64,000 bases of DNA, from the IMG/VR virus record IMGVR_UViG_3300031519_004866; one strand, 5' to 3'. Every line of letters begins with the position of its first letter. Within the stretch, counting starts at the first letter, position 1. The translations under genes were made by a program, and so were the position numbers. This DNA is from a virus. The notes under the pieces are model-generated. The model saw only the letters and a program-made list of their open reading frames with translations. It was not told where the DNA came from and ran no database searches. Below are positions 14,564 through 34,462 of this stretch, in pieces.

Positions 14564-14877
14564 TCTCAATCACACAGTCAGCTATCGACCACATGTCGAC
14601 TCTGATCACTGAACAAGGCCAACCTGTCGTCCGACTTCAAGTCAAGGGCGGCGGGTGCGCCGGATTTCAATACGAATGGAAGATGGAAGATGCTGTTGAA
14701 GCGAATGACGAAGTTATTGACTTACCCAATGGCAAGTTTGCTATTGATGAGTTTAGTGTTATGTATGTCGCTGGCACTGAAGTTGATTTTGTTAAAGAAG
14801 TTTTTGGATCTCAACTTGTAATTAGAAATCCTAATGCAACATCAAGCTGCGGCTGCGGCGAGAGTTTTGCTGCCTAA
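14539..14877 (+). CDS. iscA: Fe-S cluster carrier IscA/ErpA/HesB family
   Basis: GGGCAGFQY and C-terminal CGCGESF; start uncertain (14539 or 14593). Confidence 0.92.
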   Translation: MDNLEKRLVSITQSAIDHMSTLITEQGQPVVRLQVKGGGCAGFQYEWKMEDAVEANDEVIDLPNGKFAIDEFSVMYVAGTEVDFVKEVFGSQLVIRNPNATSSCGCGESFAA

Positions 14878-15891
14878 GTAATGCTCATACAATTTAATAC
14901 TCGCTAAATTCTTACATTTACTTTCACACATAATATCTGCATAGTCTAAGAAACTTAATGCCCAGTCATTAACTTTATCATTAGGATAATAATCACTGTG
15001 CGCTCTTAGTTTACCTTTTTTGTAGCCTTGTTCTAATAGTACAGGCATATCAGGCATAGTGTCATGTGCAAAGCCTTCAGGCAAGTGTTCTGTTCTGCTG
15101 TAGCTGTAATGCATTGCAGGACGTACACCGCGCCAACTATCAACTATGCGTTTAAATCTATCATCGGTGGGTAAAATATATTCACCTTCTCTTGCCCAGT
15201 GATGGTGTATGTCGAGTACAAGTGCGCAGGTATTGGCAAGCTCAAGACTGTCTGCGATTCCCCATTTGTTTTCGTCGTTCTCGATCGTAATAGTGTTTCG
15301 CGCCTCTTGAGAAAGTCTGTTGTTGACTGCATGTTTAATACCGGCTGGACCTTGCCTGCCTGATATATGGACGTTGCACTTGAAGTCTTGGAATGTGCGT
15401 CCATAGCCCATCCAGCGGATGACATCGGTGTGATATTCAAATTCTTCTATGCTCCTCTCTACTATTTCCGGACTATCTGAAGCAAGGACTGTAAATTGGC
15501 CTGGGTGCATGGAGAGTCTAACATCGAGGGCTCTTGCTTGTTTGCCAACGTTTGCAAAGTTTTTCTCACAGTACGCAACAACATCCGGCTTGCGCCAAAA
15601 ATAAGACCACTCATGCTGAGTATACACAGGAAGTACATCACTACCAAGTCTAACCATTCGTAATTCATTTGGTAAACCTCCAACATATGTAATTAGGTTC
15701 ATGTACGATTGTACATTATGAACCATAATATCCCACAACCGTTCTTCAGCAACTTCACGGGTTTGTCTATTAAGCCACTGTACTGTTGTACTTTTTGTAT
15801 TTAGTGGCCGCTGAATTTCTTCTAATACTTTCTTAGTCTGTGTTTGGTCCGGGTGCATGTATTTACATGCGAAGCCTATACGTTTAATCAT
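14842..15891 (-). CDS. uvsE: UV damage endonuclease UvsE/UvdE
   Basis: RIGFAC, RLSMHPGQF.VL.S, NVHISG, TIENDE, LDIHHH, HSDY, MCESKCK motifs. Confidence 0.92.
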   Translation of the reverse strand: MIKRIGFACKYMHPDQTQTKKVLEEIQRPLNTKSTTVQWLNRQTREVAEERLWDIMVHNVQSYMNLITYVGGLPNELRMVRLGSDVLPVYTQHEWSYFWRKPDVVAYCEKNFANVGKQARALDVRLSMHPGQFTVLASDSPEIVERSIEEFEYHTDVIRWMGYGRTFQDFKCNVHISGRQGPAGIKHAVNNRLSQEARNTITIENDENKWGIADSLELANTCALVLDIHHHWAREGEYILPTDDRFKRIVDSWRGVRPAMHYSYSRTEHLPEGFAHDTMPDMPVLLEQGYKKGKLRAHSDYYPNDKVNDWALSFLDYADIMCESKCKNLASIKLYEHYLGSKTLAAAAA

Positions 15892-16588
15892 GTTGTTTTA
15901 ATAATTCCCAAGTGTGTTTCCAGTCTATTACAGTATAACACATTCCTAAATCATTGTCAATGATTTGTCGCTTTAAAGGATAGTCATTTCCTTCTTTGTG
16001 CATAGCATCACCAAAAAAGTGTAGTTCGTCATTAGAATCAAAGTCGCTTAATATTTGACTTTTATCATTGCCACGTGGTGCAATATCAATACCAGTTTCG
16101 CCACCTACAGTTGCTTGTAAATTTGGAAACAAATTATTGAATTCTGATGCAATTTTATTTCGTTCGTTGTGTTCGTTGTCGTAAATAGCATACAGTTTGC
16201 GTTCTTTCATTGTAGCATTACGCCCTACAATACTATAGTTTACCATACCTGTACGATTTTCAATATGTAATCCAGTGCGTAAAGGAAATGTACTTTCGAC
16301 TAACTTTCCATCTAAAAAAGACTTTTCTACTAACGGTAAAACCCAGTCTGAACTTCTAATATTCTTTCCAGCTTCCCAAACATCACTACCGCTACAATTG
16401 TAAACAGTATTAACATTTTCAACAATACTAGTACCAACTTGTTCTACAGTTTTAGGATAGTCACTGCCTGTAACAAGATGTACAGCGTTGTCGTATGTGA
16501 ACTCTAAAAACCAGCGTTGAAAATCAGCATTAATGCGCTGCCTGCTAGGTGTTAGTGTTCCGTCAACATCAAAAATAAATCGTTTCAT
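15884..16588 (-). CDS. HAD-superfamily phosphomannomutase-like enzyme
   Basis: FDVDGTLTP, VTGSD, GG.TGIDI.P.G.DK, FFGD...GNDYP motifs of HAD-type (eukaryote-like) PMM. Confidence 0.85.
   Translation of the reverse strand: MKRFIFDVDGTLTPSRQRINADFQRWFLEFTYDNAVHLVTGSDYPKTVEQVGTSIVENVNTVYNCSGSDVWEAGKNIRSSDWVLPLVEKSFLDGKLVESTFPLRTGLHIENRTGMVNYSIVGRNATMKERKLYAIYDNEHNERNKIASEFNNLFPNLQATVGGETGIDIAPRGNDKSQILSDFDSNDELHFFGDAMHKEGNDYPLKRQIIDNDLGMCYTVIDWKHTWELLKQHD
15932..15960 (-). promoter_or_regulatory. Sigma70-type promoter for uvsE (inside PMM 3' end)
   Basis: TTGACA-N17-TATACT with TG extension. Confidence 0.7.
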
Positions 16589-16720: not shown

Positions 16721-17545
16721 TTAAAGTTTAGATTTTGGATATTTCTTTTTGAAGTGCTTAAATAATTTCATTACTCTTTGTACTTTAGCAACTACGTTAT
16801 CTGTTTTAGCAAACTTGTGATGATTAGCAAACACAAATGCATCTTCAACTTCTCGTTCAATATCGCCGCCAGTGTCCACTGTTATTTCGTGTTCGTGTAA
16901 CATTGATCGACTAATTGGGATATACTGTGCTAATGGAGTGCCTGCTTTAACTAATGTCTCGCCTTCAAGTACATGCCAAAACAATTGCACAGGAATGGCA
17001 TGCATATACATTGGATCAATAATTCCGTAAGCAGCCGTAAATCTTGTTTCGTTGTTATACGAAACAGGCATCTGTAATAACAACATGTCATCACTAGCTT
17101 TTACTCTCCAAGGAGTTTCAACTTTAACTGCTGAATTATGATAGGGCTTATTTGTATTCTTAGTGTCATCTGGAATTAATGGTTCTGTCTGCCAAGGCGC
17201 ATGCCAATTAATATAGTACTCGTATCCTTGAATAGTGTAATTGCCACTATTAGGTTTTACAAAGTGAAATGGAACTTCCCAACCAAGGTTTTCAATATCA
17301 GGCCCTGTTTTAATAACAAAGTCTGCTGGCGCTCTAAGAACATATCCTGACTTCATCAACGGTTTGATACCGGGACAATTTTTAGATATTTGATTACCAC
17401 TTTCAGGGCGAACCCTTCTAGTTCCTACATCATTAAATTTACGGTCTGCATTACCTGCAGGCTCAATTGGATATAAGGTAGCAACGTTCTCATCTAGTGA
17501 GTAAAAACGTAACCAACTTTTCTTATTTCGTTTAAAGTTAAACAT
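16721..17545 (-). CDS. Hypothetical protein, possible dUTPase-like beta fold
   Basis: CPGI..LM.SGYVL.AP.DF and GIID...VKAGTPLAQYIP; similar pattern in 52286..53002. Confidence 0.6.
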   Translation of the reverse strand: MFNFKRNKKSWLRFYSLDENVATLYPIEPAGNADRKFNDVGTRRVRPESGNQISKNCPGIKPLMKSGYVLRAPADFVIKTGPDIENLGWEVPFHFVKPNSGNYTIQGYEYYINWHAPWQTEPLIPDDTKNTNKPYHNSAVKVETPWRVKASDDMLLLQMPVSYNNETRFTAAYGIIDPMYMHAIPVQLFWHVLEGETLVKAGTPLAQYIPISRSMLHEHEITVDTGGDIEREVEDAFVFANHHKFAKTDNVVAKVQRVMKLFKHFKKKYPKSKL

Positions 17546-17563: not shown

Positions 17564-18376
17564 TTATTGCCAGTTGTCAACTACAAAACTATCTTTTACT
17601 TGTGCTGGATTTGGATCTCCATGAAACACTGCAATTGAGCAATCTGAATGTGGTTTAATATCGTTTCTAATATCTCTAAAGTTTCGTTGTCCGTCACGCA
17701 TTGTTAATTCATCACGACTGCGTATTTCCCATTTGTAACTTTGTATCCATTCGTCAGGCCAAAATCTAAGTTCTTCCCTACACTGTTGCCAAATCCAATC
17801 TTGGTCACCGTGGAGTTTTTGAGCGTGAGCTGGATTTTCAATAAACCTTTGAAAGATTTTTTGTTGGGTTCTAGCATTCCATGCCATAACTGAACTGTTT
17901 AAATGTTTGTAACCAGGATGGAACTTTCTATTAAAATCTCTAATTCCTATAAAATCATCTAGCCACACATTACAAAATTTATCAATACTCTTGTGTACAA
18001 CAACATCAAGATCCATGTATAATATTCTACCTTCTAATGGTAATGACGGATCAAACATATGTACTTTGTGCCACCAACCTCGAGGATATCCTTTGTTTGG
18101 TATAACAATGTTGTTTACGCCTTCTATAGGTTTTGGATCATCAGTTAAGCAATTGAACGTGTATGGCACATGACAATGTCTTGCAATCATGTTGCGTAGT
18201 TTAATAACATATTCGTGTCCGTACTTGTTACCAAACCTAACACATAAAATGTTTGTTACTGGGCCATTGTCGTTTTGACGGAGTTTATCAGTATTTCTAA
18301 ACTCTTTTTCTAAACGCCTAGCTGCTTTTTGCGCTTTACGTTCTGCCTTAGTAAAGTTGTGGTTTTCTATAGCCAT
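17564..18376 (-). CDS. Glycosyltransferase (GT-A fold, GT8-like)
   Basis: LYMDLDVVV (DxD), NSSVM, GDQDWI, VFHG.PNP. Confidence 0.8.
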   Translation of the reverse strand: MAIENHNFTKAERKAQKAARRLEKEFRNTDKLRQNDNGPVTNILCVRFGNKYGHEYVIKLRNMIARHCHVPYTFNCLTDDPKPIEGVNNIVIPNKGYPRGWWHKVHMFDPSLPLEGRILYMDLDVVVHKSIDKFCNVWLDDFIGIRDFNRKFHPGYKHLNSSVMAWNARTQQKIFQRFIENPAHAQKLHGDQDWIWQQCREELRFWPDEWIQSYKWEIRSRDELTMRDGQRNFRDIRNDIKPHSDCSIAVFHGDPNPAQVKDSFVVDNWQ

Positions 18377-18379: not shown

Positions 18380-19162
18380 TTAGCACTCAGCATGGCGGAC
18401 AATGCTGTCGACCACTGCTTCAAAATCTTTTAAATGTAATGCATTAGGTCCATCGCTAGGTGCGTTGTCTGGATCTTCGTGTACTTCTAAAAAGAAATTC
18501 CTAATACCCAAAGCACTTGCTGCCCGGCATAAGCCAGGAACGTAATCCCTATTGCCACCGCTACTGCTTCCGTTACCACCTGGTTTTTGTACAGAGTGGG
18601 TAACGTCGAATACGATATCAGCACTGATATTGTTAAGCATGTAATCCATACCAGTGAAATCAACGACCAAAGTATTATATCCAAAACTAGTTCCTCTTTC
18701 TGTAATCCAAACCTCTTTGGCACCTTCAGTTTTACTTAGTATATTTTCAATATCCCATGGTGCTAAGAATTGTCCTTTTTTAATATTAACAATTTTATCT
18801 GTAGCACATGCTGCCTGCACTAAATCTGTTTGTCGGCATAAGAACGCTGGAATCTGTAAAGCATCTACAGTGTCGTTAAATCCTTCTGTAATCCAATTGA
18901 TTTGTGGTACTGTATGCACGTCAGTGATTGTCTTTACAAGAAGTCTATCTTTGATAGTTTCAAAATCGTGTAGTGTAGCATTTAATCCAAGTCCACGCTG
19001 ACCGTTAATACTTGATCTATTTGCTTTATCAAAACTAGCTTTAAAGTAATATTCAATACCGTGCTTTTCACATACACGTTTACACTCTTCAGCAATTCTT
19101 AATGATTGCTTTAGTGATTCGTGCTGACACGGACCTGCTATAATTCTCATACCTTCCGTCAT
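18380..19162 (-). CDS. kdsA: KDO8P synthase
   Basis: IAGPCQ, KASFDKANRSS, TDVH, QIPAFLCRQTDL, NIKKGQFLAP, ERG.SFGY, DVTHSVQKPG, EVH.DP..A.SDG; start may be 19150. Confidence 0.96.
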   Translation of the reverse strand: MTEGMRIIAGPCQHESLKQSLRIAEECKRVCEKHGIEYYFKASFDKANRSSINGQRGLGLNATLHDFETIKDRLLVKTITDVHTVPQINWITEGFNDTVDALQIPAFLCRQTDLVQAACATDKIVNIKKGQFLAPWDIENILSKTEGAKEVWITERGTSFGYNTLVVDFTGMDYMLNNISADIVFDVTHSVQKPGGNGSSSGGNRDYVPGLCRAASALGIRNFFLEVHEDPDNAPSDGPNALHLKDFEAVVDSIVRHAEC

Positions 19163-19645
19163 TTAATCTTCCTTGTATGTTTCTCTGCGTGTATGATATG
19201 GTGTATAGATTGCACTGTTTGCACCGTGTTCTGCACACTCTGCCGACTCACACCAACAACGATTGTTAGTTGCTTCACGTATAAGTTTATCTGCAAATTG
19301 CCATGCATGTTCTGCAAACTTCTCTGCACCTACACCATCAAATACTCTAATCTCTGCTAAGCCTTTAGCTTCAAGATCCATAAATGTTTCCATGTGTGGA
19401 TCTTTAACATCAATTGCTGTTTTGTGATCGAAATGATCTTCTAACCAAGCCTTCAAAGGTTTTAATCCTCCAAAGTCAACTGCCCAGTTCTTATTGTCTA
19501 AATCACTGCAACCAAATACAAACTTAAATTGTAAGCTGTATCCGTGTAGTAAATGACAATGCGAATGATCAGCATTAGGTTGTCTAAACACAGCACTCAA
19601 CCCAATGTTGTGTCCGTATGTTTTTGTTGAAAAATATTGTCCCAT
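19163..19645 (-). CDS. queD: 6-pyruvoyl tetrahydropterin synthase / QueD family
   Basis: HC.LLHGY, VDFGGLK, FDH, AE.FA, E...N.A motifs. Confidence 0.88.
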   Translation of the reverse strand: MGQYFSTKTYGHNIGLSAVFRQPNADHSHCHLLHGYSLQFKFVFGCSDLDNKNWAVDFGGLKPLKAWLEDHFDHKTAIDVKDPHMETFMDLEAKGLAEIRVFDGVGAEKFAEHAWQFADKLIREATNNRCWCESAECAEHGANSAIYTPYHTRRETYKED

Positions 19646-19720: not shown

Positions 19721-19748
19721 ATTATACACGATCTTGTGCAGAAGTCAA
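19721..19748 (-). promoter_or_regulatory. Sigma70-type promoter for queD-kdsA-GT operon
   Basis: TTGACT-N16-TATAAT. Confidence 0.6.
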
Positions 19749-20353
19749 GATATTGATTTAAAAAATTGTTCAAAACGCACATTAGGCTTTTTCCACTGTG
19801 CTGGAAAGTCCCATTCGTGCATGTTTTTTATAATAAATTGTTTGTTAGGAAAGTGTTTAAAAATTAATCCAATTTGTCTAACCCAAAACGAAGGATCAAT
19901 TGGATGTGAATGTTCATCTGAATAGTTGTCTGTGCCTTTGTACAAGTTATTAACTTTCTCGTTTATTCCGTATAAATCAAATCCTAATAGAGTTATTTCG
20001 TCACTCTCTAAGTTTGCAGCAACTAACACTGCATACGGTCCACTGCCCCAGTTAATAGGTTGATTTTGTTTTTGTTCGTCGGTGTAAGGAAGTTCAGGCA
20101 CTGCATGAATACGTTTATCTTTTCTAACTTTACGAAAGTACTGATAGTTTTCTTCACGAACATATATCTTTGTGTCCGTTGTGTTCAACCCCTCAGTGGA
20201 TTCGTGTACCATGCGTCGATCACAACAGACAAGATGTTCAACCGTCATATCTCTATGTACAGCGTTACATCCTACTAATGTGTATTTTGGAAATAGTTGT
20301 GGTAAATCTAAGCCTTTTCGACTCTCTCCATTACCTAATACTAACGTTGGCAC
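19745..20353 (-). CDS. Rossmann-like protein resembling GT42/CstII sialyltransferase (or DUF115/MptE-like)
   Basis: LVLGNGESR...VGCN and WGSGPYAVLVAA...ITLLGFDLY parallel CstII IIAGNGPS...RCN and TSGVYM..A...IYLSGIDFY; GTG start. Confidence 0.55.
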   Translation of the reverse strand: MPTLVLGNGESRKGLDLPQLFPKYTLVGCNAVHRDMTVEHLVCCDRRMVHESTEGLNTTDTKIYVREENYQYFRKVRKDKRIHAVPELPYTDEQKQNQPINWGSGPYAVLVAANLESDEITLLGFDLYGINEKVNNLYKGTDNYSDEHSHPIDPSFWVRQIGLIFKHFPNKQFIIKNMHEWDFPAQWKKPNVRFEQFFKSIS

Positions 20354-20356: not shown

Positions 20357-21166
20357 CTATCGAATTTCTCCAAATGGTGCCCATATACCTGGGTTACCTG
20401 CTTGGATACATACCCAACCAATGTATGATTTTTGTCTTGCTTTAGTGTTCCAACAAATATCACCTTGATTGTAATTTCCACCTTGCGGTGCTTCTGTGCC
20501 GTTAATGTGTAATGCGTTGTTAAATTTAATTGGACCTCTAACATGTAGGTCAACCTGTGCATCAGGATTTGAAACACCTACTGCTAACTTACCAGCAATT
20601 TTTGCATCGTTTGTAATTTTAACATTGCCACCTGCTTCTACAACAATTCTATCTTGATTATCAGTTTTGATGTGTAAAGCATGACTACCGTATGTACCAA
20701 GATATGCTTTTGATGCATCTTCTGCACCTAATACAATTTCAATACCATCTTCAGCAATACTAACTTGGCCATTTGGTTGATCAGTACCAATACCTAATCT
20801 ATCAGATCCAGCATCGTAGTAAACATACTGGTTAATAGACATCGAACCGTCTACAATCAACCCACGTAATCTACCTAATGTTTTAAGGTTACTTTCAGTA
20901 ACACTGCTACCTAGTGCGCTTTGTGTTAATACGTCAAGTCCACCTACTTTGAATCCTTTGTTTTTAGCAACGTCTACATTCTCAGTTGAAAAGATATTAT
21001 CCTCCATCAACACAAGTTGTTTAGTGTAGTCGCTGCCAGCCCAAAATATGCCTTTGCCGTTAACATCGGTTTTAAACATTACTGACTGATTTGTAGCCCA
21101 GCCACCATCGTTTGTGAGTGCTGATTCTAAGTCTAAGAGTGCTTGATTAAGTTTTGTCTGATCCAT
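20357..21166 (-). CDS. Hypothetical protein, probably virion-associated fibre-like
   Basis: Repeated R(L/I)GIGT/AVGVSNP fibre-type motifs, C-terminal W.C...G.PG.W; late-type promoter. Confidence 0.6.
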   Translation of the reverse strand: MDQTKLNQALLDLESALTNDGGWATNQSVMFKTDVNGKGIFWAGSDYTKQLVLMEDNIFSTENVDVAKNKGFKVGGLDVLTQSALGSSVTESNLKTLGRLRGLIVDGSMSINQYVYYDAGSDRLGIGTDQPNGQVSIAEDGIEIVLGAEDASKAYLGTYGSHALHIKTDNQDRIVVEAGGNVKITNDAKIAGKLAVGVSNPDAQVDLHVRGPIKFNNALHINGTEAPQGGNYNQGDICWNTKARQKSYIGWVCIQAGNPGIWAPFGEIR

Positions 21167-23525: not shown

Positions 23526-23570
23526 ACTATTTTTCCTTTTAAAATGCGGCATTCGTTTGCTGCATGTTCT

Positions 23571-23599
23571 ATTATATAAGCCTAGACTGTGTTTGTCAA
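23571..23599 (-). promoter_or_regulatory. Consensus sigma70 promoter for Hc1-like gene
   Basis: TTGACA-N17-TATAAT, perfect match. Confidence 0.85.
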
Positions 23600-23626
23600 G
23601 CATTAAAGTGGTTAAATACGTATATA

Positions 23627-24607
23627 ATGAATGATTTTACTTTAATACCGTTTCACAATATTGTTAAGTTTGGGCAAAAGACCATGCTTGACCAGCCATT
23701 GTTTAATGTTAGCTGGATATTAGGCCGCTTTTGTAATTACAGTTGTAGCTACTGTTGGCCGTATGCAAACACAAATGTACCGGATCATCAGGAGTTTGAA
23801 ATATATACTAATGCGCTTGATGAGATAAAACGTCAGGCTAGAGATAATGGCTTTACAGAATTCCACTTTAGCTTTAGTGGTGGTGAGCCTACTGCGTATA
23901 AGAAGTTTGGTGATTTAATAGAACACTATGCCAACGATGATGATGCTAAGTATCTAAGTTTGCATCTAACAACGAATTTAAGTCCAGGTAGTAAATGGTG
24001 GAACAGATTTATTGATGCTACACAGCATTTACACCGTCGAAGTATTACTGCAAGTTATCATGCAGAGTTTGCTAATGAACAAGAGTTTGGAGATAAATGT
24101 CTTCAGCTTATGAAAGGAGGAGTTTATGTTACGATCAATCAAGTTATGGTTCCTGAAATGTTTGAGGAACTTTACGAACGCCTGGAACGATTTGCCACCA
24201 GAGGTATCAATGTCACTCTCAAACCCCAATCTGACCCCACCGCATCTTTCGTTGTACATGGATACACTGAAGAACAAATCACAAGAATGCAAAGAGGATT
24301 CCCACAGCACTGGAAAGAAAAAGAAGTAATGCAAATGTACATGGAAGATGCCAAAGGCAACGACTATGGGTTGGACCAAGCTGAACGCATGAACGCTTTT
24401 GGATTTAATAAATTTAAAGATTGGACATGTAACGCAGGATATCAAAGCTGCATTATAAGCGGTGATACTGTCAAGAGAGCATATAGTTGTAGCGATAAAC
24501 CATTAGGTACGCTACAGGGCGGTTTTACGCTGTTTAAGACACCAACTAAATGTATTACCGATACATGTGTAAGTAGTGCAGACAGTAAGATACCAAAGGT
24601 AAAGTAA
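23627..24607 (+). CDS. Radical SAM protein 1 (C-terminal Twitch/SPASM-like)
   Basis: CNYSCSYC, SFSGGEPT, C-terminal C..G...C...C.....C; start revised from 23564; TAAATA at 23613-23618. Confidence 0.9.
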   Translation: MNDFTLIPFHNIVKFGQKTMLDQPLFNVSWILGRFCNYSCSYCWPYANTNVPDHQEFEIYTNALDEIKRQARDNGFTEFHFSFSGGEPTAYKKFGDLIEHYANDDDAKYLSLHLTTNLSPGSKWWNRFIDATQHLHRRSITASYHAEFANEQEFGDKCLQLMKGGVYVTINQVMVPEMFEELYERLERFATRGINVTLKPQSDPTASFVVHGYTEEQITRMQRGFPQHWKEKEVMQMYMEDAKGNDYGLDQAERMNAFGFNKFKDWTCNAGYQSCIISGDTVKRAYSCSDKPLGTLQGGFTLFKTPTKCITDTCVSSADSKIPKVK

Positions 24608-25209
24608 TGAAGATTGATATTCAAGATATAAAGTTTTGGATGGACGCTATTCGCAACAGCGAAGATAGAGACCGTACACTTGAAAGTTTTTGGGGAGGCC
24701 AGTTAAAATCAAAAACTTGGTTAATTGAAACTTTAGAAAAGTCTAATCATGTTGCCAATGCTGAAGTAGTTATATTTGGTGGATGGAATGGAGTGTTAGC
24801 TAACATGCTGTTTAATAGTAGCATAGGGTTTAAACATATTACAAGTGTAGACATTGATCCTGTATGCGAAACCGTTGCATTGACAATTAACAAACGTCAA
24901 GAAATGGAAGGACGTTTTATAGCAGTAACATCAGATATGTGTGATTACGAATATACAAATAAACCTTATTTTGTTATTAATACAAGTTGCGAACATATTA
25001 GTCAACAACAATATAATAAATGGTTAAGTAATGTTCCAGAAGGCTCGAAGATAATATTACAATCAAATAACTATTTTGACCTTGAAGAACATGTTAACTG
25101 TAGTGCATCATTAGAAGAATTTGCAAGAAAGTCTAAGTTAAAAGTATTACACTCAGCTGAATTAGAATTACCTAAGTACAAAAGATTTATGATTATAGGA
25201 AACCTTTAA
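24607..25209 (+). CDS. Class I SAM-dependent methyltransferase-like protein
   Basis: VIFGGWNG, SVDID, INTSCEH motifs; TAATG coupling. Confidence 0.7.
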   Translation: MKIDIQDIKFWMDAIRNSEDRDRTLESFWGGQLKSKTWLIETLEKSNHVANAEVVIFGGWNGVLANMLFNSSIGFKHITSVDIDPVCETVALTINKRQEMEGRFIAVTSDMCDYEYTNKPYFVINTSCEHISQQQYNKWLSNVPEGSKIILQSNNYFDLEEHVNCSASLEEFARKSKLKVLHSAELELPKYKRFMIIGNL

Positions 25210-26291
25210 TGTTTGACTTTAATGATCTAAAAACTATTCACATTGAGCTAACAACAAACTGTCAAGCAAAATGTCCAATGTGTTCAAGAAACATACACAG
25301 CGGAGTAGAAAATCCGCTATTACGAATAGTACAATGGACATTGGACGATTTTAAAACTATTATTAACAAAGAAGTACTAGACACAATTAACCGTGCGTAC
25401 TTCTGTGGTAACTTTGGCGATCCATTACTAAATGACAGTCTTATTGATATGTGCAGATATGTAAAGGACACCAGTCCTAAGACAGCAATAGGTATACATA
25501 CAAACGGTAGTTTAAGGAATGCAAAATGGTGGTCAGATCTAGCAAAAGCATTACCAGAAGACCATTGCGTTTACTTTGCTCTTGACGGACTAGAAGACAC
25601 TCATAAATTATATAGAGTTGGCACAGATTGGAATCGTATTATTGAAAATGCAAAAACATTTATTGCAGCCGGAGGCCGTGCTAACTGGACATATATCAAA
25701 TTCAAACACAACGAGCACCAAGTTGATAAATGTAGACAAATTGCAAAAGATTTAGGCTTCCAAGATTTCACAGTTAAAAACACATCAAGATTTTTAGTTG
25801 AGCCTAAGTATGATGTATGGGATAAAAATAAAATTCCACTGTATAGTTTAGAAGCACCATCTGATACCGAAACACACTTTTTACCTAAAGAAGTTATTGA
25901 CAATTATAAATCAGTTTTAGACGAAGCAGAAATAGATTGTCATGTACAACAAATAAAAGAAATATACATTGATGGTTCTAAAACAGTATTACCATGTTGT
26001 TGGTTAGCACAAACTCCAATGACTCATTATGATCCTGCACATGTTTGCGAAGATGTTATAGATATGTTAAGAGGACAATATAGTAAAATGATAAGTGACT
26101 TTGGCGGTATAAGCAATCTTGATGCAACTAAAGGAATAAAAAATATTATTGACTCTGACGTTTGGCAAAACATATGGAAAAAGAAATGGAATGAAGATAA
26201 AATGCTAATGTGTGCAAGAACATGTGGTAAGTTTAAAACATTTAATATCTCACAACCACAAGATCAATTTATTGAAAGAGAAATGTTATGA
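25209..26291 (+). CDS. Radical SAM protein 2 (C-terminal SPASM/Twitch)
   Basis: CQAKCPMC, FCGNFGDP, HTNG, FALDG, PCCW, C.RTC. Confidence 0.9.
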   Translation: MFDFNDLKTIHIELTTNCQAKCPMCSRNIHSGVENPLLRIVQWTLDDFKTIINKEVLDTINRAYFCGNFGDPLLNDSLIDMCRYVKDTSPKTAIGIHTNGSLRNAKWWSDLAKALPEDHCVYFALDGLEDTHKLYRVGTDWNRIIENAKTFIAAGGRANWTYIKFKHNEHQVDKCRQIAKDLGFQDFTVKNTSRFLVEPKYDVWDKNKIPLYSLEAPSDTETHFLPKEVIDNYKSVLDEAEIDCHVQQIKEIYIDGSKTVLPCCWLAQTPMTHYDPAHVCEDVIDMLRGQYSKMISDFGGISNLDATKGIKNIIDSDVWQNIWKKKWNEDKMLMCARTCGKFKTFNISQPQDQFIEREML

Positions 26292-27694
26292 CAGATTGGC
26301 ACTACGATAAAGAAGATACTAGATTAGGCAAGTTTCAAAGAGAGCTTGAATCTGTTTCTAGTAGTACGTTTTGTGTACTTCCGTGGATACACATGGCAAC
26401 TAGGCCTAACGGTGATATGCGCTTATGTTGTACTGCTAATGCTAGTGGAGCTGGAGACGATCACGAAGTTGGTCTTGTAAAAATGGAAGATGGCAAACCT
26501 GCAAACTTTGGCAAACATACTCCAATGGAAGCATGGAATAACGATTACATGAAAAGTGTACGTACAACTATGCTTAAAGGAGAGATCCCTGCAAGTTGTA
26601 AAGGATGTTTCAAAGAAGAGTCACAAGGCATTGTTAGCAAACGTATATGGGAAAGTGCAACATGGAAAAATGATGAAGGTATTGATATACCAGAACTTAT
26701 TGCACAAACACAAGAAGACGGAACCGTGCCTGAACAATTAAAATATCTGGATCTAAGATTAGGACATACATGCAATATTAAGTGTGTAATGTGTAGCCCG
26801 CATGATTCAAGTAAGTGGGTTGCGGACCATAAAAAACTTATTCCTGTACTACAAGACCCAGAAGTTAAAAGACAAATGCAATGGGATAAGAAACTTTTTA
26901 ACAACAAATGGCACGAAAAAGATGCTTTTTGGCAAGAACTCAATGCGCAAATACCTTACCTTAAACAAGTATATTTTGCTGGAGGAGAGCCGTTAATGAT
27001 CAAAGAGCATAAACGCTTTCTTAAAGAAATTATTACACAGGGCTATGCTGACAAAATTTTAGTAAGGTACAACTCCAATGGTTTGCTAGTTGACAACGAG
27101 TTAATTGATATATGGAGTAAGTTTAAGAAAGTTAAATTTGCAGTAAGTATCGACTCGTATAAAGAGCGTGACGAATACATTAGATTTCCAACTAACTTTA
27201 AACAAGTTGAAAGCACATTACATTTACTAGATAACACTCCCGACAACATTCATGTTAGCATTGCAACAGCAGTACAAATATTCAATATAAAAACTATACC
27301 CGAATTTATTAAATGGAAAGTTAATAGTAATTTTAAAAAGATGAATGTTGGTTTGATTGATGGACATATTATGGGAGGCGGCCTTTTAAATGCACACTTA
27401 GTACACATACCAACATTTTTAAATATTACAATACTGCCTGAAAAAGACAAGCAAGAAGTACGTGAAAAGTTCGCTGAACTAAAACAATGGTTATGGAATA
27501 ACTTTACACAAGACGATGAGTTTTGGAAACACAATCCTAAAGGTTGGCGCCAATGGGAAGGGTTACTAAAGCACATGGATAGTTGTGATAACAGTCATAT
27601 GTTACCTGGCTTTAAAGAGTATGTAAATAAATTAGATGCAATCCGTGGCTTGAATGCCGCATCAGTATTTCCGGAGTTATCACATTTACTATGA
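26288..27694 (+). CDS. Radical SAM protein 3 (N-terminal Twitch-like domain)
   Basis: N-terminal FCVLPW...RLCC...C.GC; CNIKCVMC; FAGGEP; YNSNG. Confidence 0.92.
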   Translation: MTDWHYDKEDTRLGKFQRELESVSSSTFCVLPWIHMATRPNGDMRLCCTANASGAGDDHEVGLVKMEDGKPANFGKHTPMEAWNNDYMKSVRTTMLKGEIPASCKGCFKEESQGIVSKRIWESATWKNDEGIDIPELIAQTQEDGTVPEQLKYLDLRLGHTCNIKCVMCSPHDSSKWVADHKKLIPVLQDPEVKRQMQWDKKLFNNKWHEKDAFWQELNAQIPYLKQVYFAGGEPLMIKEHKRFLKEIITQGYADKILVRYNSNGLLVDNELIDIWSKFKKVKFAVSIDSYKERDEYIRFPTNFKQVESTLHLLDNTPDNIHVSIATAVQIFNIKTIPEFIKWKVNSNFKKMNVGLIDGHIMGGGLLNAHLVHIPTFLNITILPEKDKQEVREKFAELKQWLWNNFTQDDEFWKHNPKGWRQWEGLLKHMDSCDNSHMLPGFKEYVNKLDAIRGLNAASVFPELSHLL

Positions 27695-28701
27695 CAGATA
27701 TTATTAAGATTGTTAATACTAGAGAAGAAGATTATATAGCAATTACATACTTCCCTACAGATATTTGTAATTTTGATTGCACGTATTGTTTTCCAGGAAG
27801 TCACCCATCTAAATATAGATACAGAAAAGACACAGACTTTGTCATTGACAACTTTAAAAAATTATTTGCTTTTTATAAATTAAAATTTAATAAATCTAAA
27901 ATATATTTTGAAATTGCCGGTGGCGGCGAACCAACACTATGGCCGGATTTATTAAAATTTTGCAAAGAAATTAAAAAAGTTCCAGACTTATCTATAGCAC
28001 TAGTATGCAACGGATCAAGAACACTTCGTTGGTGGGACACTATTATTCCCTATATTGACGAAGTTATGTTAAGTTACCATAACGAATTTACAAAAACAGA
28101 TCATTACATCAATGTAGCAGATTTGATTTGGGAGAATGGTAAGAAAGTAAATGCTATGGTATTAATGGATTATCCTAATTGGGATAAGTGTATCGATGCA
28201 ATTGAACAAATGAAACAAAGTAAATACAACTGGTTTATAAATGCAAAAGAAGTAGTAACTGCTCCAGGGCACGATGTAGAATCATATACTTTAGAACAAA
28301 AAGAATATTTAAAACAACCTATTAAGCGGTTGCCTGATTCAAGTTATATACTAAACAATCTACAAGATTATAGAATGGTCGAAAGTGTTGCAATACTTAA
28401 TAACGACAAAGTAGTTACAGCAGGTCCTAATTATTACTTAATAAACTCTATTAATAATTTTAAAGGATGGGCATGTAACGTAATATCTGAAAAAATAACT
28501 ATTTTTCCTTCTGGCAAAATAACAGGATCGTGTAATATAGACTTTGATTATGATTTAAATTTATACTCGACCACGTTAGAAAAAGACTTAAAACAAGTTA
28601 CATTACCTTATGTAACATGTACTATGAATTGTTGTGCTTGTCTAAGTGATAATCACATTACAAAATCAAAGCCAGCTATTATTCCTGCAGTACCTTTGTA
28701 A
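27691..28701 (+). CDS. Radical SAM protein 4
   Basis: CNFDCTYC, GGGEPT, CNGS, C-terminal Cys cluster. Confidence 0.9.
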   Translation: MTDIIKIVNTREEDYIAITYFPTDICNFDCTYCFPGSHPSKYRYRKDTDFVIDNFKKLFAFYKLKFNKSKIYFEIAGGGEPTLWPDLLKFCKEIKKVPDLSIALVCNGSRTLRWWDTIIPYIDEVMLSYHNEFTKTDHYINVADLIWENGKKVNAMVLMDYPNWDKCIDAIEQMKQSKYNWFINAKEVVTAPGHDVESYTLEQKEYLKQPIKRLPDSSYILNNLQDYRMVESVAILNNDKVVTAGPNYYLINSINNFKGWACNVISEKITIFPSGKITGSCNIDFDYDLNLYSTTLEKDLKQVTLPYVTCTMNCCACLSDNHITKSKPAIIPAVPL

Positions 28702-29602
28702 GAGGTATATCAGCAGCACACGTACACCATTTACGAGTACAAGTTATCCATTCTTCAGGCTGCTCAAAACTGCCATCATAGATGTTACCTATACTTCCAC
28801 CTACTCTACAAGTAGCACGATGTACATCGCCATCCCAATTAATCATTAGGCTTTCAATTCCTGCACTGCATTTCCAACCTTTAAATTGATTTAGGTGTTG
28901 TTTAATAACATCGTTGGCATGCATCTTAGTTGTGTCGTCAATAATTACATTAGGATTTACGGTAGACGTTCTGTCTAATATCCATTCTAAATCTTTACCT
29001 TCATATTTCAAATCATCAAACACATCATGGTCACCTTCTGTCCATCGTATTCGTCTTACAACATAAGGAATACAGTGTCCATCAAACATTGTAGCACACT
29101 CTTTTACTCTATCCATAAATTGATGATGTGCCATTAAGTTAACTTGAAATGGCTTTTGTGTATACGCACCTTCATTTAATTGAGAAAACAATAATACTGT
29201 TTCTGCGCATCGTCTCCAATTTTCAGTATCTTCTACGTGCAAACTAAACACAATGTGACTTACATTAAGATCGTTGTAGTACTCGGCTGTGCGGGTTCCG
29301 TTGGTAGTTACGTTAACCCACTCAAGCTGTTGACCTTGCATTGCATGATCAACTAGTTCTACAAACTGTGGATGAACACACGGCTCACCGCCTGTGAAAC
29401 TTACACGTATTGGCTTGCCAATTTCCCCTAGTGCATCAACTGCATCTAACAATACTTTAATATTTGTGTGTGGGCTAGTGTTGTCATGAATTGCTGCTGG
29501 GCAATAACTACAATCTAAGTTACAGCGTTTACCTAAATTCCATTCAACATGAACGCTATCTTGTCGATCATAACTAGAAGCTATTTTAAACATACGGCGC
29601 AA
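28679..29602 (-). CDS. Radical SAM protein 5
   Basis: CNLDCSYC, FTGGEP, TTNG, C.AG...C...C...C.C. Confidence 0.9.
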   Translation of the reverse strand: MRRMFKIASSYDRQDSVHVEWNLGKRCNLDCSYCPAAIHDNTSPHTNIKVLLDAVDALGEIGKPIRVSFTGGEPCVHPQFVELVDHAMQGQQLEWVNVTTNGTRTAEYYNDLNVSHIVFSLHVEDTENWRRCAETVLLFSQLNEGAYTQKPFQVNLMAHHQFMDRVKECATMFDGHCIPYVVRRIRWTEGDHDVFDDLKYEGKDLEWILDRTSTVNPNVIIDDTTKMHANDVIKQHLNQFKGWKCSAGIESLMINWDGDVHRATCRVGGSIGNIYDGSFEQPEEWITCTRKWCTCAADIPLTKVLQE

Positions 29603-30857
29603 ACTCTGGATTTATAACTTCAAACGGTCCTTGCTTACGACTTTTGTCTAAGTTACGATTAAAGTTAATACAGTCTTGCCATAACTCGTCGTGTAAATCG
29701 TCTGCTTGTAAGAAGTTAATATTATCCTGAATCTGCGTTAATGTAAAATCTTTAATTCTGCTATCACTTTTTACAAGTTTGTAATCTAAAACTTTTTCTT
29801 TCATTGCTTCTAGTTTATCAATTACTTGTAGTTTTAGTTCATTAGGAATAACCTGTGCTGATAACGCCTTAGGATATTGTACTCTATGACTGTAGAATAT
29901 AATTTCCATGTTCTCCATAAAGTACTCAATTACTTTATCAATTTGCATTATATTGTTTGACTGTACAGTAAATGCTCCAACAATTCTACTAACTGTAGGA
30001 ATTGTTTTCATAATTTTAATATTTTCTTCAATCTCAATAAACTTGCCATTGCCTCTAATGTATTCATAGATATCGTGTATACCGTCTATGCTTACATTAA
30101 CAGCAACACTTTTAAACTTAGGCCAATATTCGTGTACAGTTCGACCGCCCTTAATACCAAGTGTAGTTCCGTTAGTAGCATACTTTAATTCAATGTTCTC
30201 TCCATACGGTGCTAACATATCTAAAATTTTATAATGTTGAGGATCCATTAATGGTTCGCCGCCTGCAAACTCTACTCGTCTAAAGTAGGGCAATAGTTTC
30301 TTAAAACTACTCCACCAATTATCTGTATCTTCAAATGCATCAATATATTGACCTGGCTTTTTAACCAGTGCATTAACTGTTGGAATGAGAAAGTTATTTT
30401 CTTTTTTGTAAAATTCTGTAACTTGATCCCAGTCTTTCCATTGTGTGCTATCTAACGGGTTACACATACGACATTTAAGATTACATAAGTTGTTTAACTT
30501 TACTTCCATTGTAGGTATTTCAAATGGCATTGAATAATCATCTTCTAAGGCGTCTAATGCATTAGGATATAAATTAATCCTAGCTTCTGGTATAACACCT
30601 TCTATATGTCGCTGACGTAAACTTTGAACTCCTTGGTCTTCTAACCTAAAACAAGGTGCGCATACTTCAGGTCGTTCGTCATTCATTACCTGCCGGCGTA
30701 CCTCTTTAATCTTGTCTCCGTTCCAAATTTCTTCTAGTGTGTTATCTTTGATATCGCCAATAGGAGCACTGCGGCAACAAATCTTAATTGCGCCATCTTC
30801 TCTAGTTGCTAATCCTGTAAAAGGATGCATACAAAAAGTTTTACTGTTGCATGGCAT
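29586..30857 (-). CDS. Radical SAM protein 6 (N-terminal Twitch-like domain)
   Basis: FCMHPF...ICC...C..C; CNLKCRMC; FAGGEP; start revised to 30857 (SD GGAG). Confidence 0.92.
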   Translation of the reverse strand: MPCNSKTFCMHPFTGLATREDGAIKICCRSAPIGDIKDNTLEEIWNGDKIKEVRRQVMNDERPEVCAPCFRLEDQGVQSLRQRHIEGVIPEARINLYPNALDALEDDYSMPFEIPTMEVKLNNLCNLKCRMCNPLDSTQWKDWDQVTEFYKKENNFLIPTVNALVKKPGQYIDAFEDTDNWWSSFKKLLPYFRRVEFAGGEPLMDPQHYKILDMLAPYGENIELKYATNGTTLGIKGGRTVHEYWPKFKSVAVNVSIDGIHDIYEYIRGNGKFIEIEENIKIMKTIPTVSRIVGAFTVQSNNIMQIDKVIEYFMENMEIIFYSHRVQYPKALSAQVIPNELKLQVIDKLEAMKEKVLDYKLVKSDSRIKDFTLTQIQDNINFLQADDLHDELWQDCINFNRNLDKSRKQGPFEVINPEFAPYV

Positions 30858-31581
30858 TGGTAACTCCCCATTGTCTTTCTTGGCACCAAAAACATTTTTT
30901 ACATGTTGGAACATATTGTCCTGGCTTGTATGTTGCGTAGTCTAATCCTTTAAACACTTCCGGATATTGCTCATTATCACCTTCGCAACTTCTTGTTATA
31001 TTGAGTAACTCGGCAATATCATATTTTATAAATTGCCCAATAATCCAATCTTTTCTAGTTTCTATAAATGGGTGACAAACTGTAACTCCCATATGTAACA
31101 TTATAGCATCTATTGATGGTGTTTGTCTATCATTTAATGCACCTTCTAACTCTACATCGGGGTTTAATGTTACTCCTGCAAACCATGCATCTAACTTTTC
31201 CTTGTGTGCTAGATACTCATTAAACGATCGTAAAATAATTCTGTTTCCAGATTTCATTTTACCATTTTCGTCTTTGATCATAGTTGTGTGTGGTTCTTCT
31301 AGATCGGGTGGTATAAAGTTTGTGTGTCTTATAAATTCAAGTTCTGGAAATTTAGCAATAAACCAATCAAACACTTCAGCTGAAATGTGTTCTTGCCATG
31401 GCCTTGTTTTCCAACAGCGTATCTGTGTACTAATATGTACCCTGCAATTTACAGGTAAATTTTTACATACCAAATATGTTAATAATGCACTGTCTGCGCC
31501 ACCGCTAAGGCTTATGCCAATATTTCTCCATTTTGGATCAATGGGGAAATCTACATGATCTATTTTAATCCACTTACGCAT
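30841..31581 (-). CDS. QueC-like PP-loop ATPase
   Basis: SLSGGADSALL PP-loop; TRSC...CKKCFWC.ER zinc motif; start revised to 31581. Confidence 0.75.
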   Translation of the reverse strand: MRKWIKIDHVDFPIDPKWRNIGISLSGGADSALLTYLVCKNLPVNCRVHISTQIRCWKTRPWQEHISAEVFDWFIAKFPELEFIRHTNFIPPDLEEPHTTMIKDENGKMKSGNRIILRSFNEYLAHKEKLDAWFAGVTLNPDVELEGALNDRQTPSIDAIMLHMGVTVCHPFIETRKDWIIGQFIKYDIAELLNITRSCEGDNEQYPEVFKGLDYATYKPGQYVPTCKKCFWCQERQWGVTNAMQQ

Positions 31582-31586
31582 GATAA

Positions 31587-31630
31587 TATTTACCAAGTTC
31601 TGTACGCAGTTAATACAGTTCCGGTAAATA
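31587..31630. promoter_or_regulatory. Back-to-back leaderless late-type promoters
   Basis: Minus TAAATA(31587-92) ttatc ATG(31581); plus TAAATA(31625-30) ttagt ATG(31636). Confidence 0.7.
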
Positions 31631-31635
31631 TTAGT

Positions 31636-32298
31636 ATGCTAGAAAAAACAACATACACAGTCCCCTTGGAAATGCTTAGTTTGGTTGATGTTAACGAGCT
31701 TAACGGCAAAACTTCAATTAACAAGCCAACTGGAAATTTCTTTTACGATCCGTGGATTATATCTGCTGATTATAGAGACACTGTATGGCATAAAATTTTA
31801 CAAACACTAGATTGCTCTAATATTGGTGAAGCACGAGTTATAGTTTTAAATTCTCCAAGCTGCTATACCAAACATGCAGACATTGACGATCGCTGGCATT
31901 TAAATATATTTGGCGATCAAGGATATCTAATTGATCTTGACACTGAAATAATGCACAAAACAGAACAAGATGGCATTTGGTACAAAATGGATGCTGGTGT
32001 TATGCATACTGCTATAAGTGTTGGCGAGCATAAAAGAGTCCAACTAATTGTAAGAGAACTTTTAGAACGTAACAAATTAGTTGACCCAGTAAAAGTATGG
32101 ATATCATTAGTAGGTAACAATCCAAGATACGTGTTTGATAACACACTAAGTCCTTGGCTTAACAAAATACATAAACAAAAACTAATGTCAAATTTTGAAG
32201 CAGGCAGCACTATGGTTAAATTTGATATTGAAAAAGAATTACTTGCAGAACTTAACAAAGTGAAGCCAGTGCAATTTACAATAGGAATATATGAATGA
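31636..32298 (+). CDS. 2OG-Fe(II)/Asp-Asn beta-hydroxylase-like oxygenase
   Basis: HADID..H...HTA...R facial triad pattern; start revised from 31555. Confidence 0.75.
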   Translation: MLEKTTYTVPLEMLSLVDVNELNGKTSINKPTGNFFYDPWIISADYRDTVWHKILQTLDCSNIGEARVIVLNSPSCYTKHADIDDRWHLNIFGDQGYLIDLDTEIMHKTEQDGIWYKMDAGVMHTAISVGEHKRVQLIVRELLERNKLVDPVKVWISLVGNNPRYVFDNTLSPWLNKIHKQKLMSNFEAGSTMVKFDIEKELLAELNKVKPVQFTIGIYE

Positions 32299-33209
32299 AA
32301 ATACTAATGACAGGAAGTTCCGGTTTTATCGGACAACACTTAACTGCTAGATTAAAAGATCACAACGTACATCACATGGTAAGTGACCTTCGAGATCATA
32401 AAGCAGTCACTGACGAAGTAATAGCTGTTAAGCCTGACATCATTGTACATCTAGCAGCACGTACAGAAGTTGAACAAAGTTTTTATGAACAGATTACTTT
32501 CAGTGAGATTAATTACGTTGGTACTGTTAATTTAATTGAAGCAGCAGCAAAAGTTAAAAATTTAAAAAACTTTGTATTTGCTAGTACTATGGAAGTTTAT
32601 GGGTGGCAACCTATTAGTGACGAAGTTGAAAAACATACTATACCAGATAACTTTGTAGCCTTTGATGAAAATACACAACCTAATCCAAATGCTCCATATG
32701 CAGTTGCTAAGTACGGATGTGAAAAATATTTAGAATACGCACATCGTTGTTTGGATCTTCCGTTTACTGCATTTAGACAAACTAACTGCTATGGTAGAAA
32801 AGACAACGACTATTTTGTAACGGAACAAATTATTAGCCAGATGCTAGTTAGTGATGAATGTAACTTAGGGTACGCAGAGCCATATCGTAATTTTATACAT
32901 GTAACTGATATGCTAGATGCATGGCAAACTGTAATAGAAAACCCGGACAAATGCAATGACGGAATGATATTTACAATTGGTCCTGACAACCCTATCAAGA
33001 TCAAAGACTACGCAGAACTAATTGCAAAGAAGATTGGGTTTACAGGTAAGATTAACTGGAACACAAAACTTTTCCGTGCAGGAGAAATTTATTGGTTAAA
33101 CAGTAACAACACCTTAATTACTGAACGATTAGGATGGGAACCTAAAGTTAGCCTAGACGAAGGTCTAGATAAAACAATTGACTATTGGAGAAGTAAACTT
33201 GAAGGATAA
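32295..33209 (+). CDS. NAD-dependent nucleotide-sugar epimerase/dehydratase
   Basis: TGSSGFIG, HLAA, STMEVYG, YAVAK (YxxxK), R.F.HV.D. Confidence 0.92.
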   Translation: MKILMTGSSGFIGQHLTARLKDHNVHHMVSDLRDHKAVTDEVIAVKPDIIVHLAARTEVEQSFYEQITFSEINYVGTVNLIEAAAKVKNLKNFVFASTMEVYGWQPISDEVEKHTIPDNFVAFDENTQPNPNAPYAVAKYGCEKYLEYAHRCLDLPFTAFRQTNCYGRKDNDYFVTEQIISQMLVSDECNLGYAEPYRNFIHVTDMLDAWQTVIENPDKCNDGMIFTIGPDNPIKIKDYAELIAKKIGFTGKINWNTKLFRAGEIYWLNSNNTLITERLGWEPKVSLDEGLDKTIDYWRSKLEG

Positions 33210-33891: not shown

Positions 33892-34462
33892 ACTAGTTGG
33901 ACTTACAGAAAATATAATCGACTGGGATCCTATTGTTGATCTTTGTGCCAACTGCACAACAGGCGATTACAATTCTGTTAAAACAGTTGTTGATCGTTCA
34001 GAAGGCAACTGGAGAGAAAATCCTGAATTACTAGGATCGTATCATGACGTTATCGATACTTGGGATAACGCAGGTTACAATTTAGATGAAATCGAATGGT
34101 GGGATTATTATCCAGGAGACCATTTTGATATTGATATACAAAACAAGTTTGCAAAAATTATAGATGCAGAACCGTTAAGAGTGTTTGTTAGCGATGTTAG
34201 ACCAGGCACAAATGTTCCATATCATTGGGATGTAGAAGATAAAGAAGAAGAATGGTTAGCACTTGGCGAACTTAAACGTTGGGTATGTTTTATGGATAAG
34301 CCACGATGGGGTAATGTGTTAATACTAGAAGACCAAGCATTTCATAATGTAGCTCAAGGCGAGATATGGGAATGGGATAGTTATCGTAGTCATCATGCTG
34401 GAACAAGCTGTGGTATACATCACCAATACTTGTTTCATTTTTTAGGAAGGCCAAACAAATGA
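33884..34462 (+). CDS. 2OG-Fe(II) oxygenase-like protein
   Basis: PG...PYHWD ... W.W......HHAG. Confidence 0.75.
   Translation: MAKLVGLTENIIDWDPIVDLCANCTTGDYNSVKTVVDRSEGNWRENPELLGSYHDVIDTWDNAGYNLDEIEWWDYYPGDHFDIDIQNKFAKIIDAEPLRVFVSDVRPGTNVPYHWDVEDKEEEWLALGELKRWVCFMDKPRWGNVLILEDQAFHNVAQGEIWEWDSYRSHHAGTSCGIHHQYLFHFLGRPNK

Follow-up and report, generated by a model that had tools for sequence, protein, structure and literature searches.

The window analysed here, a 64,000-nucleotide stretch of viral DNA (IMG/VR record IMGVR_UViG_3300031519_004866), carries on its minus strand an open reading frame (ORF) for a stand-alone 202-residue protein of the sialyltransferase superfamily, placed between a fibre-like gene and a queD-like gene. 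We tentatively assign this protein as a minimal (about 200 residues), soluble transferase of ulosonic acids activated with cytidine monophosphate (CMP), of the GT42 or Maf-DUF115 type and with 3-deoxy-D-manno-octulosonate (Kdo) as the presumed sugar, an assignment to which we give a little less than an even chance. The GTG start is right, because starting at the alternative ATG at 20248 would cut off the N-terminus with GNGESR, which is conserved in every homologue. The gene is real and under strong purifying selection (dN/dS about 0.13, against orthologues 75-78% identical), and its product is hydrophilic (grand average of hydropathy -0.63, isoelectric point (pI) 6.7) and has no anchor.

A homologous-protein search recovered 465 relatives of about 200 residues each (E<=1e-3), an exhaustive phmmer search yielded 698 cluster representatives (50% clustering), and relatives are encoded on 577 or more viral contigs of IMG/VR. 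Cellular homologues were found at six loci only among 185,579 species genomes, all of them on contigs of metagenome-assembled genomes (MAGs) with phage gene order, and matches in the ESM Atlas were to unnamed viral clusters only. Because these MAG contigs are phage-like, because CheckV completeness of 23-31% for relatives of 83-110 kb implies genomes of about 350 kb, and because the closest relatives in cultured phages are those of the Pelagibacter myophages HTVC008M and Mosig (Kyanoviridae, 31-34% identity), the family is specific to large uncultured marine and freshwater T4-like phages and is essentially virus-specific. The contig PBPT01000016.1 (L086 / G006:C57; 335,231 bp) was binned into a 'Candidatus Neomarinimicrobiota' MAG, yet it has a phage gene order (433-aa ORF, fibre-like gene, homologue of the 202-residue protein, QueD, GT8-like gene, UvdE) and also carries kdsA-kdsB and FolE; it probably represents almost the whole genome of a related jumbo phage, wrongly binned as cellular. 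Another contig, G006:C77, duplicates its kdsAB segment. The family duplicates readily: one relative (L089) has tandem paralogues (7899-9240), two copies that follow ClpP, HTVC008M (L082) has two or three copies, including those at 752-1309 and 4180-4983, and a 435-aa member (P0151) is a fused two-domain (tandem) protein. Our search for longer or fused relatives that could serve as Rosetta-stone clues found none.

Sequence comparisons were made with two profiles, A1 from 33 close homologues and A2 from 87 diverse ones. With HMMER, A1 matched CstII at E 2.2e-5, and A2 matched the solved GT42 enzymes CstII (E 5.3e-9), PmST (3e-7) and Cst-I (6e-7). An earlier reading of the letters (hereafter the sequence-only reading) had noticed four motifs that parallel those of CstII, and all four (GNGxS, CN, [ST]SG and GxD[FL]Y) were reproduced when the family profiles were aligned to CstII and PmST (family/CstII: GNGeSR/GNGPSL, GCNa/RCNQ, wgSGp-A/ITSGVYM and GfDlY/GIDFYQ). 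The protein keeps the nucleotide-sugar-binding core of CMP-sialic-acid enzymes, namely the GNGxS loop, CN, SG and GxDxY. Its conserved residues are G7-N8-G9-x-S11-R12, C29-N30, D45, (W102-G103-)S104-G105, G124-x-D126-x-Y128, N135-N136-x-Y138-K139, Y144 and W157; across the 87 members N8, G9, R12, G105 and G124 are invariant, and G7, S11, C29, N30, D45, D126, N135, N136, Y138, Y144 and W157 are at least 90% conserved.

Affinities with the Maf glycosyltransferases were found as well. Maf activity requires E324, D415 and a Ser, with D272, S334 and D357 in CbMaf (bioRxiv 10.1101/2020.06.03.131540). In a weak alignment (E 0.88) of one family member (P0041) to the Maf structure 5mu5, the Asp of GFDL coincides with D415 of Maf, S104 with T396 and Y138-K139 with a Tyr-Arg pair, and when A2 was compared by hhalign with a bona fide member of PF01973 (Prob 84%, E 7.8e-6), D45 fell on a conserved Asp of that protein. 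The spacing of D45, S104 and D126 (59 and 22 residues) resembles that of D272, S334 and D357 in CbMaf (62 and 23). The protein thus appears to have an Asp wherever Maf has one of its two essential acidic residues, D45 and D126 being the candidates. Four of the 87 members match PF01973 at E<=0.01; P0151 passes the cut-off (49.9 bits vs 34.6), P0041 and P0023 match below it, and matches of members below threshold are spread over PF01973 and PF06002 alike. The protein is at least as Maf/DUF115-like as it is GT42-like.

An AlphaFold2 model of the protein, built on A1, is a single domain (pLDDT (predicted local distance difference test) 92.4, pTM (predicted template modelling score) 0.90). Its best structural match is the Maf flagellin glycosyltransferase 5mu5 (Z 12.8, root-mean-square deviation (rmsd) 3.7 Å over 168 residues), and CstII (Z 11.2-11.4, rmsd 3.6-3.8 Å over 176-185 of the 202 residues), Cst-I (Z 10.9, 4.0 Å, 181 residues), the Methanocaldococcus jannaschii HPPK/MptE 8sd5 (Z 10.1-10.3, 2.8-2.9 Å, 134-135 residues), SteA (Z 9.4-9.8, 3.7-3.9 Å, 142-145 residues), thiamin pyrophosphokinases (Z 7-8.7) and eukaryotic GT29 enzymes (Z 7.4-8.4) were also recovered. 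Coverage of the model is about 83-91% for the transferases but about 67% for MptE, and among the fold matches GT42 enzymes alone were also found by sequence. The structural comparison with CstII and MptE, which the sequence-only reading had proposed as a check, thus recovered CstII (Z 11.4 over 184-185 residues) but MptE too (Z 10.3 over 135). The search recovers the whole superfamily, and therefore the fold alone cannot separate a transferase from a pyrophosphokinase.

Table. Features of the window, with the number of the 80 related viral loci that carry each neighbouring gene
Feature	Position	Strand	Details	Related loci (of 80)
DnaE NTPase-domain fragment	624..1103	-	159 aa	
UvdE UV endonuclease	14842..15891	-		
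HAD-IIB phosphomannomutase-like (PMM-like) protein	15884..16588	-		23
ORF, phrog_7084	16721..17545	-	274 aa, in the kdsA run	13
GT8-like glycosyltransferase	17564..18376	-	DxD motif	76
KdsA, Kdo-8-P (3-deoxy-8-phosphooctulonate) synthase	18380..19162	-	NCBIfam equivalog cut-offs passed	66 (within 2 kb)
QueD-type 6-carboxytetrahydropterin synthase-like protein (PTPS family)	19163..19645	-	Cx3HG motif	79
Sigma-70-like promoter TTGACT-16-TATAAT	19721..19748	-	11/12 matches; overlaps the stop codon of the 202-residue protein and heads the queD-kdsA-GT8-like run	
Stand-alone sialyltransferase-superfamily (GT42/Maf/DUF115-like) protein	19745..20353	-	202 aa, GTG start at 20353, TGA stop 19745-19747	
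Fibre-like or virion-protein-like gene	20357..21166	-	269 aa, stop 3 nt before the start of the preceding entry	80 (adjoining)
Radical-SAM/oxygenase cluster	23564..47000		nine radical-SAM ORFs, two with SPASM	
FkbM-family methyltransferase and two 2-oxoglutarate (2OG)-Fe(II) oxygenases	55540..56184, 54333..55543	-	directly downstream of the KdsB-like gene	
KdsB-like CMP-Kdo synthetase (cytidylyltransferase)	56269..56958	-	adjoins the FkbM-type methyltransferase	10 (within 10 kb)
HD_4 (alarmone-hydrolase-like) protein	57404..57928	-		
ClpP protease	58525..59082	-		
CHASE2 sensor domain fused to adenylate/guanylate cyclase catalytic domain	60973..63024	-	683 aa	

The gene order around the 202-residue protein is conserved in 80 related viral loci and reads ThyX, a 433-aa ORF, the fibre-like gene, the protein itself, PTPS, KdsA, the GT8-like gene, sometimes the PMM-like gene, and UvdE; at one of them (L011) KdsB is inserted between PTPS and KdsA. 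Sugar enzymes are close by, since the GT8-like transferase and the PMM-like protein belong to the same run, and distant members of the family also have sugar enzymes beside them. Those of HTVC008M and Mosig are located between gp59 and gp32, one of them next to a carbamoyltransferase (HTVC008M), and in L088 a 458-aa fusion of HAD_2 phosphatase/mutase and sugar-1-phosphate nucleotidyltransferase domains (9030-10406, plus strand) is encoded two genes past the family member, where it replaces QueD, KdsA and the GT8-like gene. The 274-aa ORF of the kdsA run, considered as a possible rival transferase, had no Pfam or PDB sequence match, and its AlphaFold2 model has a pLDDT of 32. Further along the window, the radical-SAM ORFs are set amid 2OG-Fe(II) and Asp/Asn-hydroxylase-like oxygenases and a short-chain dehydrogenase/reductase (SDR) dehydratase/epimerase, an unusually dense tailoring cluster for a phage.

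The late-promoter-like sequence AATAAATA stands 5 nt upstream of the ATG of the fibre-like gene, a pattern seen at seven gene starts of the window. Because of this sequence and of its 3-nt packing behind the fibre-like gene, the gene of the 202-residue protein resembles a late gene that shares its transcript with a structural gene. It probably forms a transcription unit separate from queD, since the promoter over its stop codon heads the queD-kdsA-GT8-like run. More generally, the starts 14056, 21166, 31581, 31636, 38853, 42172 and 63024 have TAAATA 5 nt upstream of the ATG, in one case 4 nt, which suggests leaderless late transcripts; the enrichment over permuted motifs is modest (7 vs at most 5), and the canonical T4 late box TATAAATA is found once in 64 kb vs about 9 expected.

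Three of the contextual claims of the sequence-only reading concerned sugar synthesis, and they held to different degrees. With 334 and 323 bits, above two NCBIfam equivalog cut-offs, the product of the kdsA gene can be taken, on its profile scores, as a bona fide KdsA. The proposed KdsB is matched best by KdsB models (E 2e-46, PseF following at 4e-4) but stays below their cut-offs, and is hence a probable KdsB; in the 335-kb relative, an orthologue of 58% identity comes immediately after kdsA. Enzymes for N-acetylneuraminic acid (Neu5Ac) had been reported as missing, and indeed no gene of the NeuB, NeuA or NeuC type was detected among about 58 window ORFs scanned with Pfam, where no other ulosonic-acid synthase was seen either. 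With KdsA, a probable KdsB and no sialic-acid synthase detected, the window visibly makes no CMP-activated ulosonic acid other than CMP-Kdo. The methyltransferase and oxygenase genes downstream of the KdsB-like gene make a modified Kdo, methylated or hydroxylated, conceivable. A fuller Kdo cassette is present in a 462-kb uncultured phage (LR756500.1, L115, 121000-141000), with genes for a SIS-domain (KdsD-like) protein, KdsB and KdsA, then a methyltransferase, a polysaccharide pyruvyl transferase and GT2. A third gene conserved beside kdsAB was considered as a rival Kdo transferase, and all-against-all BLASTP of the regions around kdsAB in the Synechococcus phage S-SCSM2R, LR756500, G006:C57 and the window returned none; Pfam identified only SIS, methyltransferase, pyruvyl-transferase and GT2 genes as neighbours of kdsAB in LR756500.

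The assignment of Kdo is based on the homology of the protein to CMP-ulosonic-acid enzymes, on Kdo being the sole visible ulosonic acid, and on precedent: CMP-Kdo serves Maf enzymes as the donor of Kdo to Ser/Thr (bioRxiv 10.1101/2020.06.03.131540), and the plant GT29 enzyme RCKT1 is a putative rhamnogalacturonan-II CMP-Kdo transferase (PMC11288761). We propose that the protein would take a CMP-activated ulosonic acid and transfer it to an acceptor hydroxyl, the most likely donor in this phage being CMP-Kdo made by the phage KdsA and KdsB together with host enzymes. CMP-Kdo would be bound through the GNGxSR loop, C29-N30, S104-G105, D126 and Y128, with S104 matching the essential Ser of Maf, and the conserved NNxYKGTxNY loop may form a lid over the phosphate and the carboxylate. 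Either D45 or D126 would activate the acceptor hydroxyl, replacing the His base of CstII. The acceptor may be a Ser/Thr of a virion protein, for example the fibre-like protein, an option that we favour slightly over a sugar of the host lipopolysaccharide (LPS) or capsule because the residues are Maf-like, no membrane-association segment is present and the gene is apparently co-transcribed late with the fibre-like gene. The complete scenario, in which a minimal Maf-like phage enzyme O-glycosylates its own fibre or virion protein with Kdo or modified Kdo made by the phage KdsA and KdsB, is more demanding, and we regard it as rather unlikely.

Several observations weigh against a Kdo transferase. 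The protein scores below the Pfam gathering threshold of PF06002 CST-I (12.8 bits vs 25, E 0.085), which only four of the 87 members match at E<=0.01, and it has no PF01973 match at E<=1. The catalytic base of CstII is His188. Its counterpart is absent, the CstII 'IGHS' aligning to 'vDPS' in the family with Pro/Asp opposite the His, and no invariant His is found downstream of GFDLY in the 33 or the 87 family sequences. The fold is shared with pyrophosphokinases, and the conserved Asp pair would also suit Mg-ATP chemistry. Adjacency of the genes in the 80 loci is mostly the shared synteny of one clade and is lost at greater distance. The transferase and the Kdo genes also occur one without the other: the complete genomes of HTVC008M and Mosig have the family and neither KdsA nor KdsB, S-SCSM2R and LR756500 carry kdsAB and no member of the family, kdsA-kdsB is 240 kb away from the homologue in the 335-kb relative, and about a dozen related loci have no kdsA between PTPS and the GT8-like gene (the records whose locus lacks kdsA are 4-21% complete). 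Host-supplied CMP-Kdo could account for HTVC008M and Mosig. The link to Kdo is thus contextual, with no strict co-occurrence, and the Kdo-transferase role put forward by the sequence-only reading is reasonable from the KdsA/KdsB context and from precedent but is not tied to these genes any more strictly. Its description of the protein as sialyltransferase-like (GT42) has to be restricted in a similar way: homology is supported by both profile and fold, but membership in GT42 is not. Since both Pfam thresholds are missed and the catalytic His of CstII is lacking, we place the protein outside both GT42 and Maf proper, in a new family of the sialyltransferase/DUF115 superfamily that is specific to phages.

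The protein may instead be a glycosyltransferase of the same superfamily that uses another donor, either a nonulosonic acid of the host (pseudaminic or legionaminic) or an unusual sugar produced by the large radical-SAM/oxygenase/dehydratase cluster of the phage; the Kdo genes would then serve elsewhere, for instance by boosting host LPS synthesis. Family members in complete phage genomes without kdsA or kdsB agree with this, as do the L088 homologue, which is beside the fusion of HAD and sugar-1-P nucleotidyltransferase domains and not beside Kdo genes, the presence in the window of about 10 radical-SAM enzymes, an SDR 4,6-dehydratase/epimerase (weakly LegB-like), oxygenases and an FkbM methyltransferase, and the donor promiscuity of Maf enzymes (bioRxiv 10.1101/2020.06.03.131540). 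However, neither a synthase of the NeuB, PseI or LegI type nor a second CMP-sugar synthetase of the CTP_transf_3 type was seen among the scanned window ORFs, and KdsA is encoded at most 2 kb from the gene in most relatives, and we consider a different donor unlikely, if worth keeping in mind. A change of chemistry is less probable still. An enzyme similar to MptE or to thiamin pyrophosphokinases would transfer pyrophosphate from ATP to the hydroxymethyl or hydroxyethyl group of a pterin or another small molecule, as the sequence-only reading had suggested as its alternative (a pterin kinase) on account of the neighbouring queD, which we also find beside the gene. The fold match is real, for 8sd5 and for thiamin pyrophosphokinases alike, some family members (4/87, P0151 above the cut-off) match PF01973, named 'MptE-like', a PTPS-family gene adjoins in 79 of the 80 loci, and FolE is present in relatives. 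But the match to MptE is the shorter one, covering about two thirds of the model vs about 90% for CstII; the solved MptE (MJ1634, 8sd5) gave no sequence match at E<=10 with either profile, against 5e-9 for GT42; and PF01973 also includes the Maf glycosyltransferases, so that a match to it is uninformative on kinase activity. The neighbouring PTPS, moreover, is about 46-54% identical to phage QueD (from, among others, BcepGomr, Acinetobacter HD01, Sphingomonas MMDA13 and the Rhizobium RHEph phages), several of these phages having adjacent QueC or QueF-like genes, and it has the QueD-type Cx3HG motif and a strong promoter of its own. None of the 30 QueD phages listed of the 108 matching is among the three records with the family, distant family members have no PTPS nearby, and neither FolP nor FolB turned up among the window ORFs scanned. 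Taken together, these points make a pyrophosphokinase improbable. We also considered whether the neighbouring gene, close to ThyX, encodes a PTPS-III that is coupled to folate synthesis and supplies 6-hydroxymethyl-dihydropterin to an MptE-like kinase; its identity of about 50% to QueD from phages with QueC or QueF-like neighbours, together with its separate promoter, led us to reject this. A search of the relatives for canonical TGT and QueC gave no TGT on the phage contig and partial PP-loop matches only.

Two further explanations have little in their favour. The gene is found among genes of DNA metabolism (ThyX, QueD, UvdE, and gp59-gp32 in pelagiphages), and its product might act on a hypermodified base of DNA, adding a sugar or pyrophosphorylating a hydroxymethyl base; but the protein is near-neutral (pI 6.7), position is weak evidence because the region is a plastic slot in T4-like genomes, and we know of no precedent for this fold acting on DNA, so that a role in DNA modification seems most improbable. 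No more credible is a non-catalytic or regulatory protein that keeps the fold only, in the manner of the SteA cell-division regulators. These match the model at Z 9.4-9.8 and the catalytic His of CstII is absent, but across the 87 members the pocket-type motifs vary little or not at all (N8, G9, R12, N30, D45, G105, G124, D126, N135, N136 and Y138), and purifying selection is strong.

Should the complete scenario of virion O-glycosylation with Kdo hold, the protein would be the smallest known enzyme of its class, with an Asp instead of a His as base. No phage transferase for Kdo or another ulosonic acid was found described in the literature searched; phage kdsA and kdsB were first reported in December 2025, in a cyanophage, and no transferase was proposed (PMC12801897). 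Decoration of the virion or rewriting of host surface glycans with Kdo would bear on phage-host recognition, grazing and the stickiness of aquatic jumbo phages, and O-glycosylation of the virion with Kdo would be the first case of a bacteriophage particle with ulosonic-acid ('sialylation-like') decoration. If the protein is a pyrophosphokinase instead, it would mark an unknown small-molecule pathway in these phages. The family is abundant, essentially virus-specific and about 200 residues long, and would thus make a convenient minimal model of the sialyltransferase/Maf fold.

Comparison with known systems helps to place the protein. Archaeal MptE (MJ1634, 8sd5) and the thiamin pyrophosphokinases resemble it in their Rossmann-like core, in size and in having a pterin-family neighbour gene, but MptE has no detectable sequence similarity to it, the neighbour here is QueD-type and not a producer of 6-hydroxymethyl-dihydropterin, and there are no folate or methanopterin genes. 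The kdsAB cassettes of S-SCSM2R (PMC12801897) and LR756500 encode KdsA about 40% and KdsB 28-36% identical to those of the window; unlike in the window, kdsA and kdsB are adjacent there, LR756500 adds the SIS-domain KdsD-like gene, and neither has a member of the family. No Kdo transferase has been proposed for either cassette. Plant RCKT1 offers a parallel in that an enzyme of sialyltransferase fold is proposed to use CMP-Kdo in place of CMP-sialic acid (PMC11288761), although RCKT1, a GT29 of the eukaryotic Golgi, has sialyl motifs and is linked to the phage protein by distant similarity of fold only (Z about 8 for GT29 structures).

The closest relations are with GT42 and Maf. CstII, Cst-I and PmST (GT42, PF06002) share with the protein a single Rossmann-like GT-A-variant fold (Z 10.9-11.4 for CstII and Cst-I, over 181-185 of 202 residues) and the GNGxS, CN, [ST]SG and GxD[FL]Y motifs, which in CstII bind CMP-Neu5Ac. 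The phage protein is, however, about 60-90 residues shorter, is missing the membrane-association region at the C-terminus and scores under the Pfam cut-off, it lacks a counterpart of His188 and its lid is replaced by the family-specific NNxYKGTxNY loop; its family is viral only, and its donor would be Kdo instead of Neu5Ac. The Maf enzymes (5mu5 of M. magneticum, and those of C. botulinum and G. kaustophilus; PF01973/DUF115) are 400-650 residues long with flanking flagellin-recognition domains, whereas the phage protein is a bare catalytic domain with no flagellin. Nevertheless Maf is its best structural match (Z 12.8), D126 (on D415), the Ser and the Tyr-Lys/Arg pair coincide in the weak alignment, D45 falls on the Asp of the PF01973 protein, and the Maf enzymes, which can use CMP-Kdo, have a structural protein as the target of their O-glycosylation.

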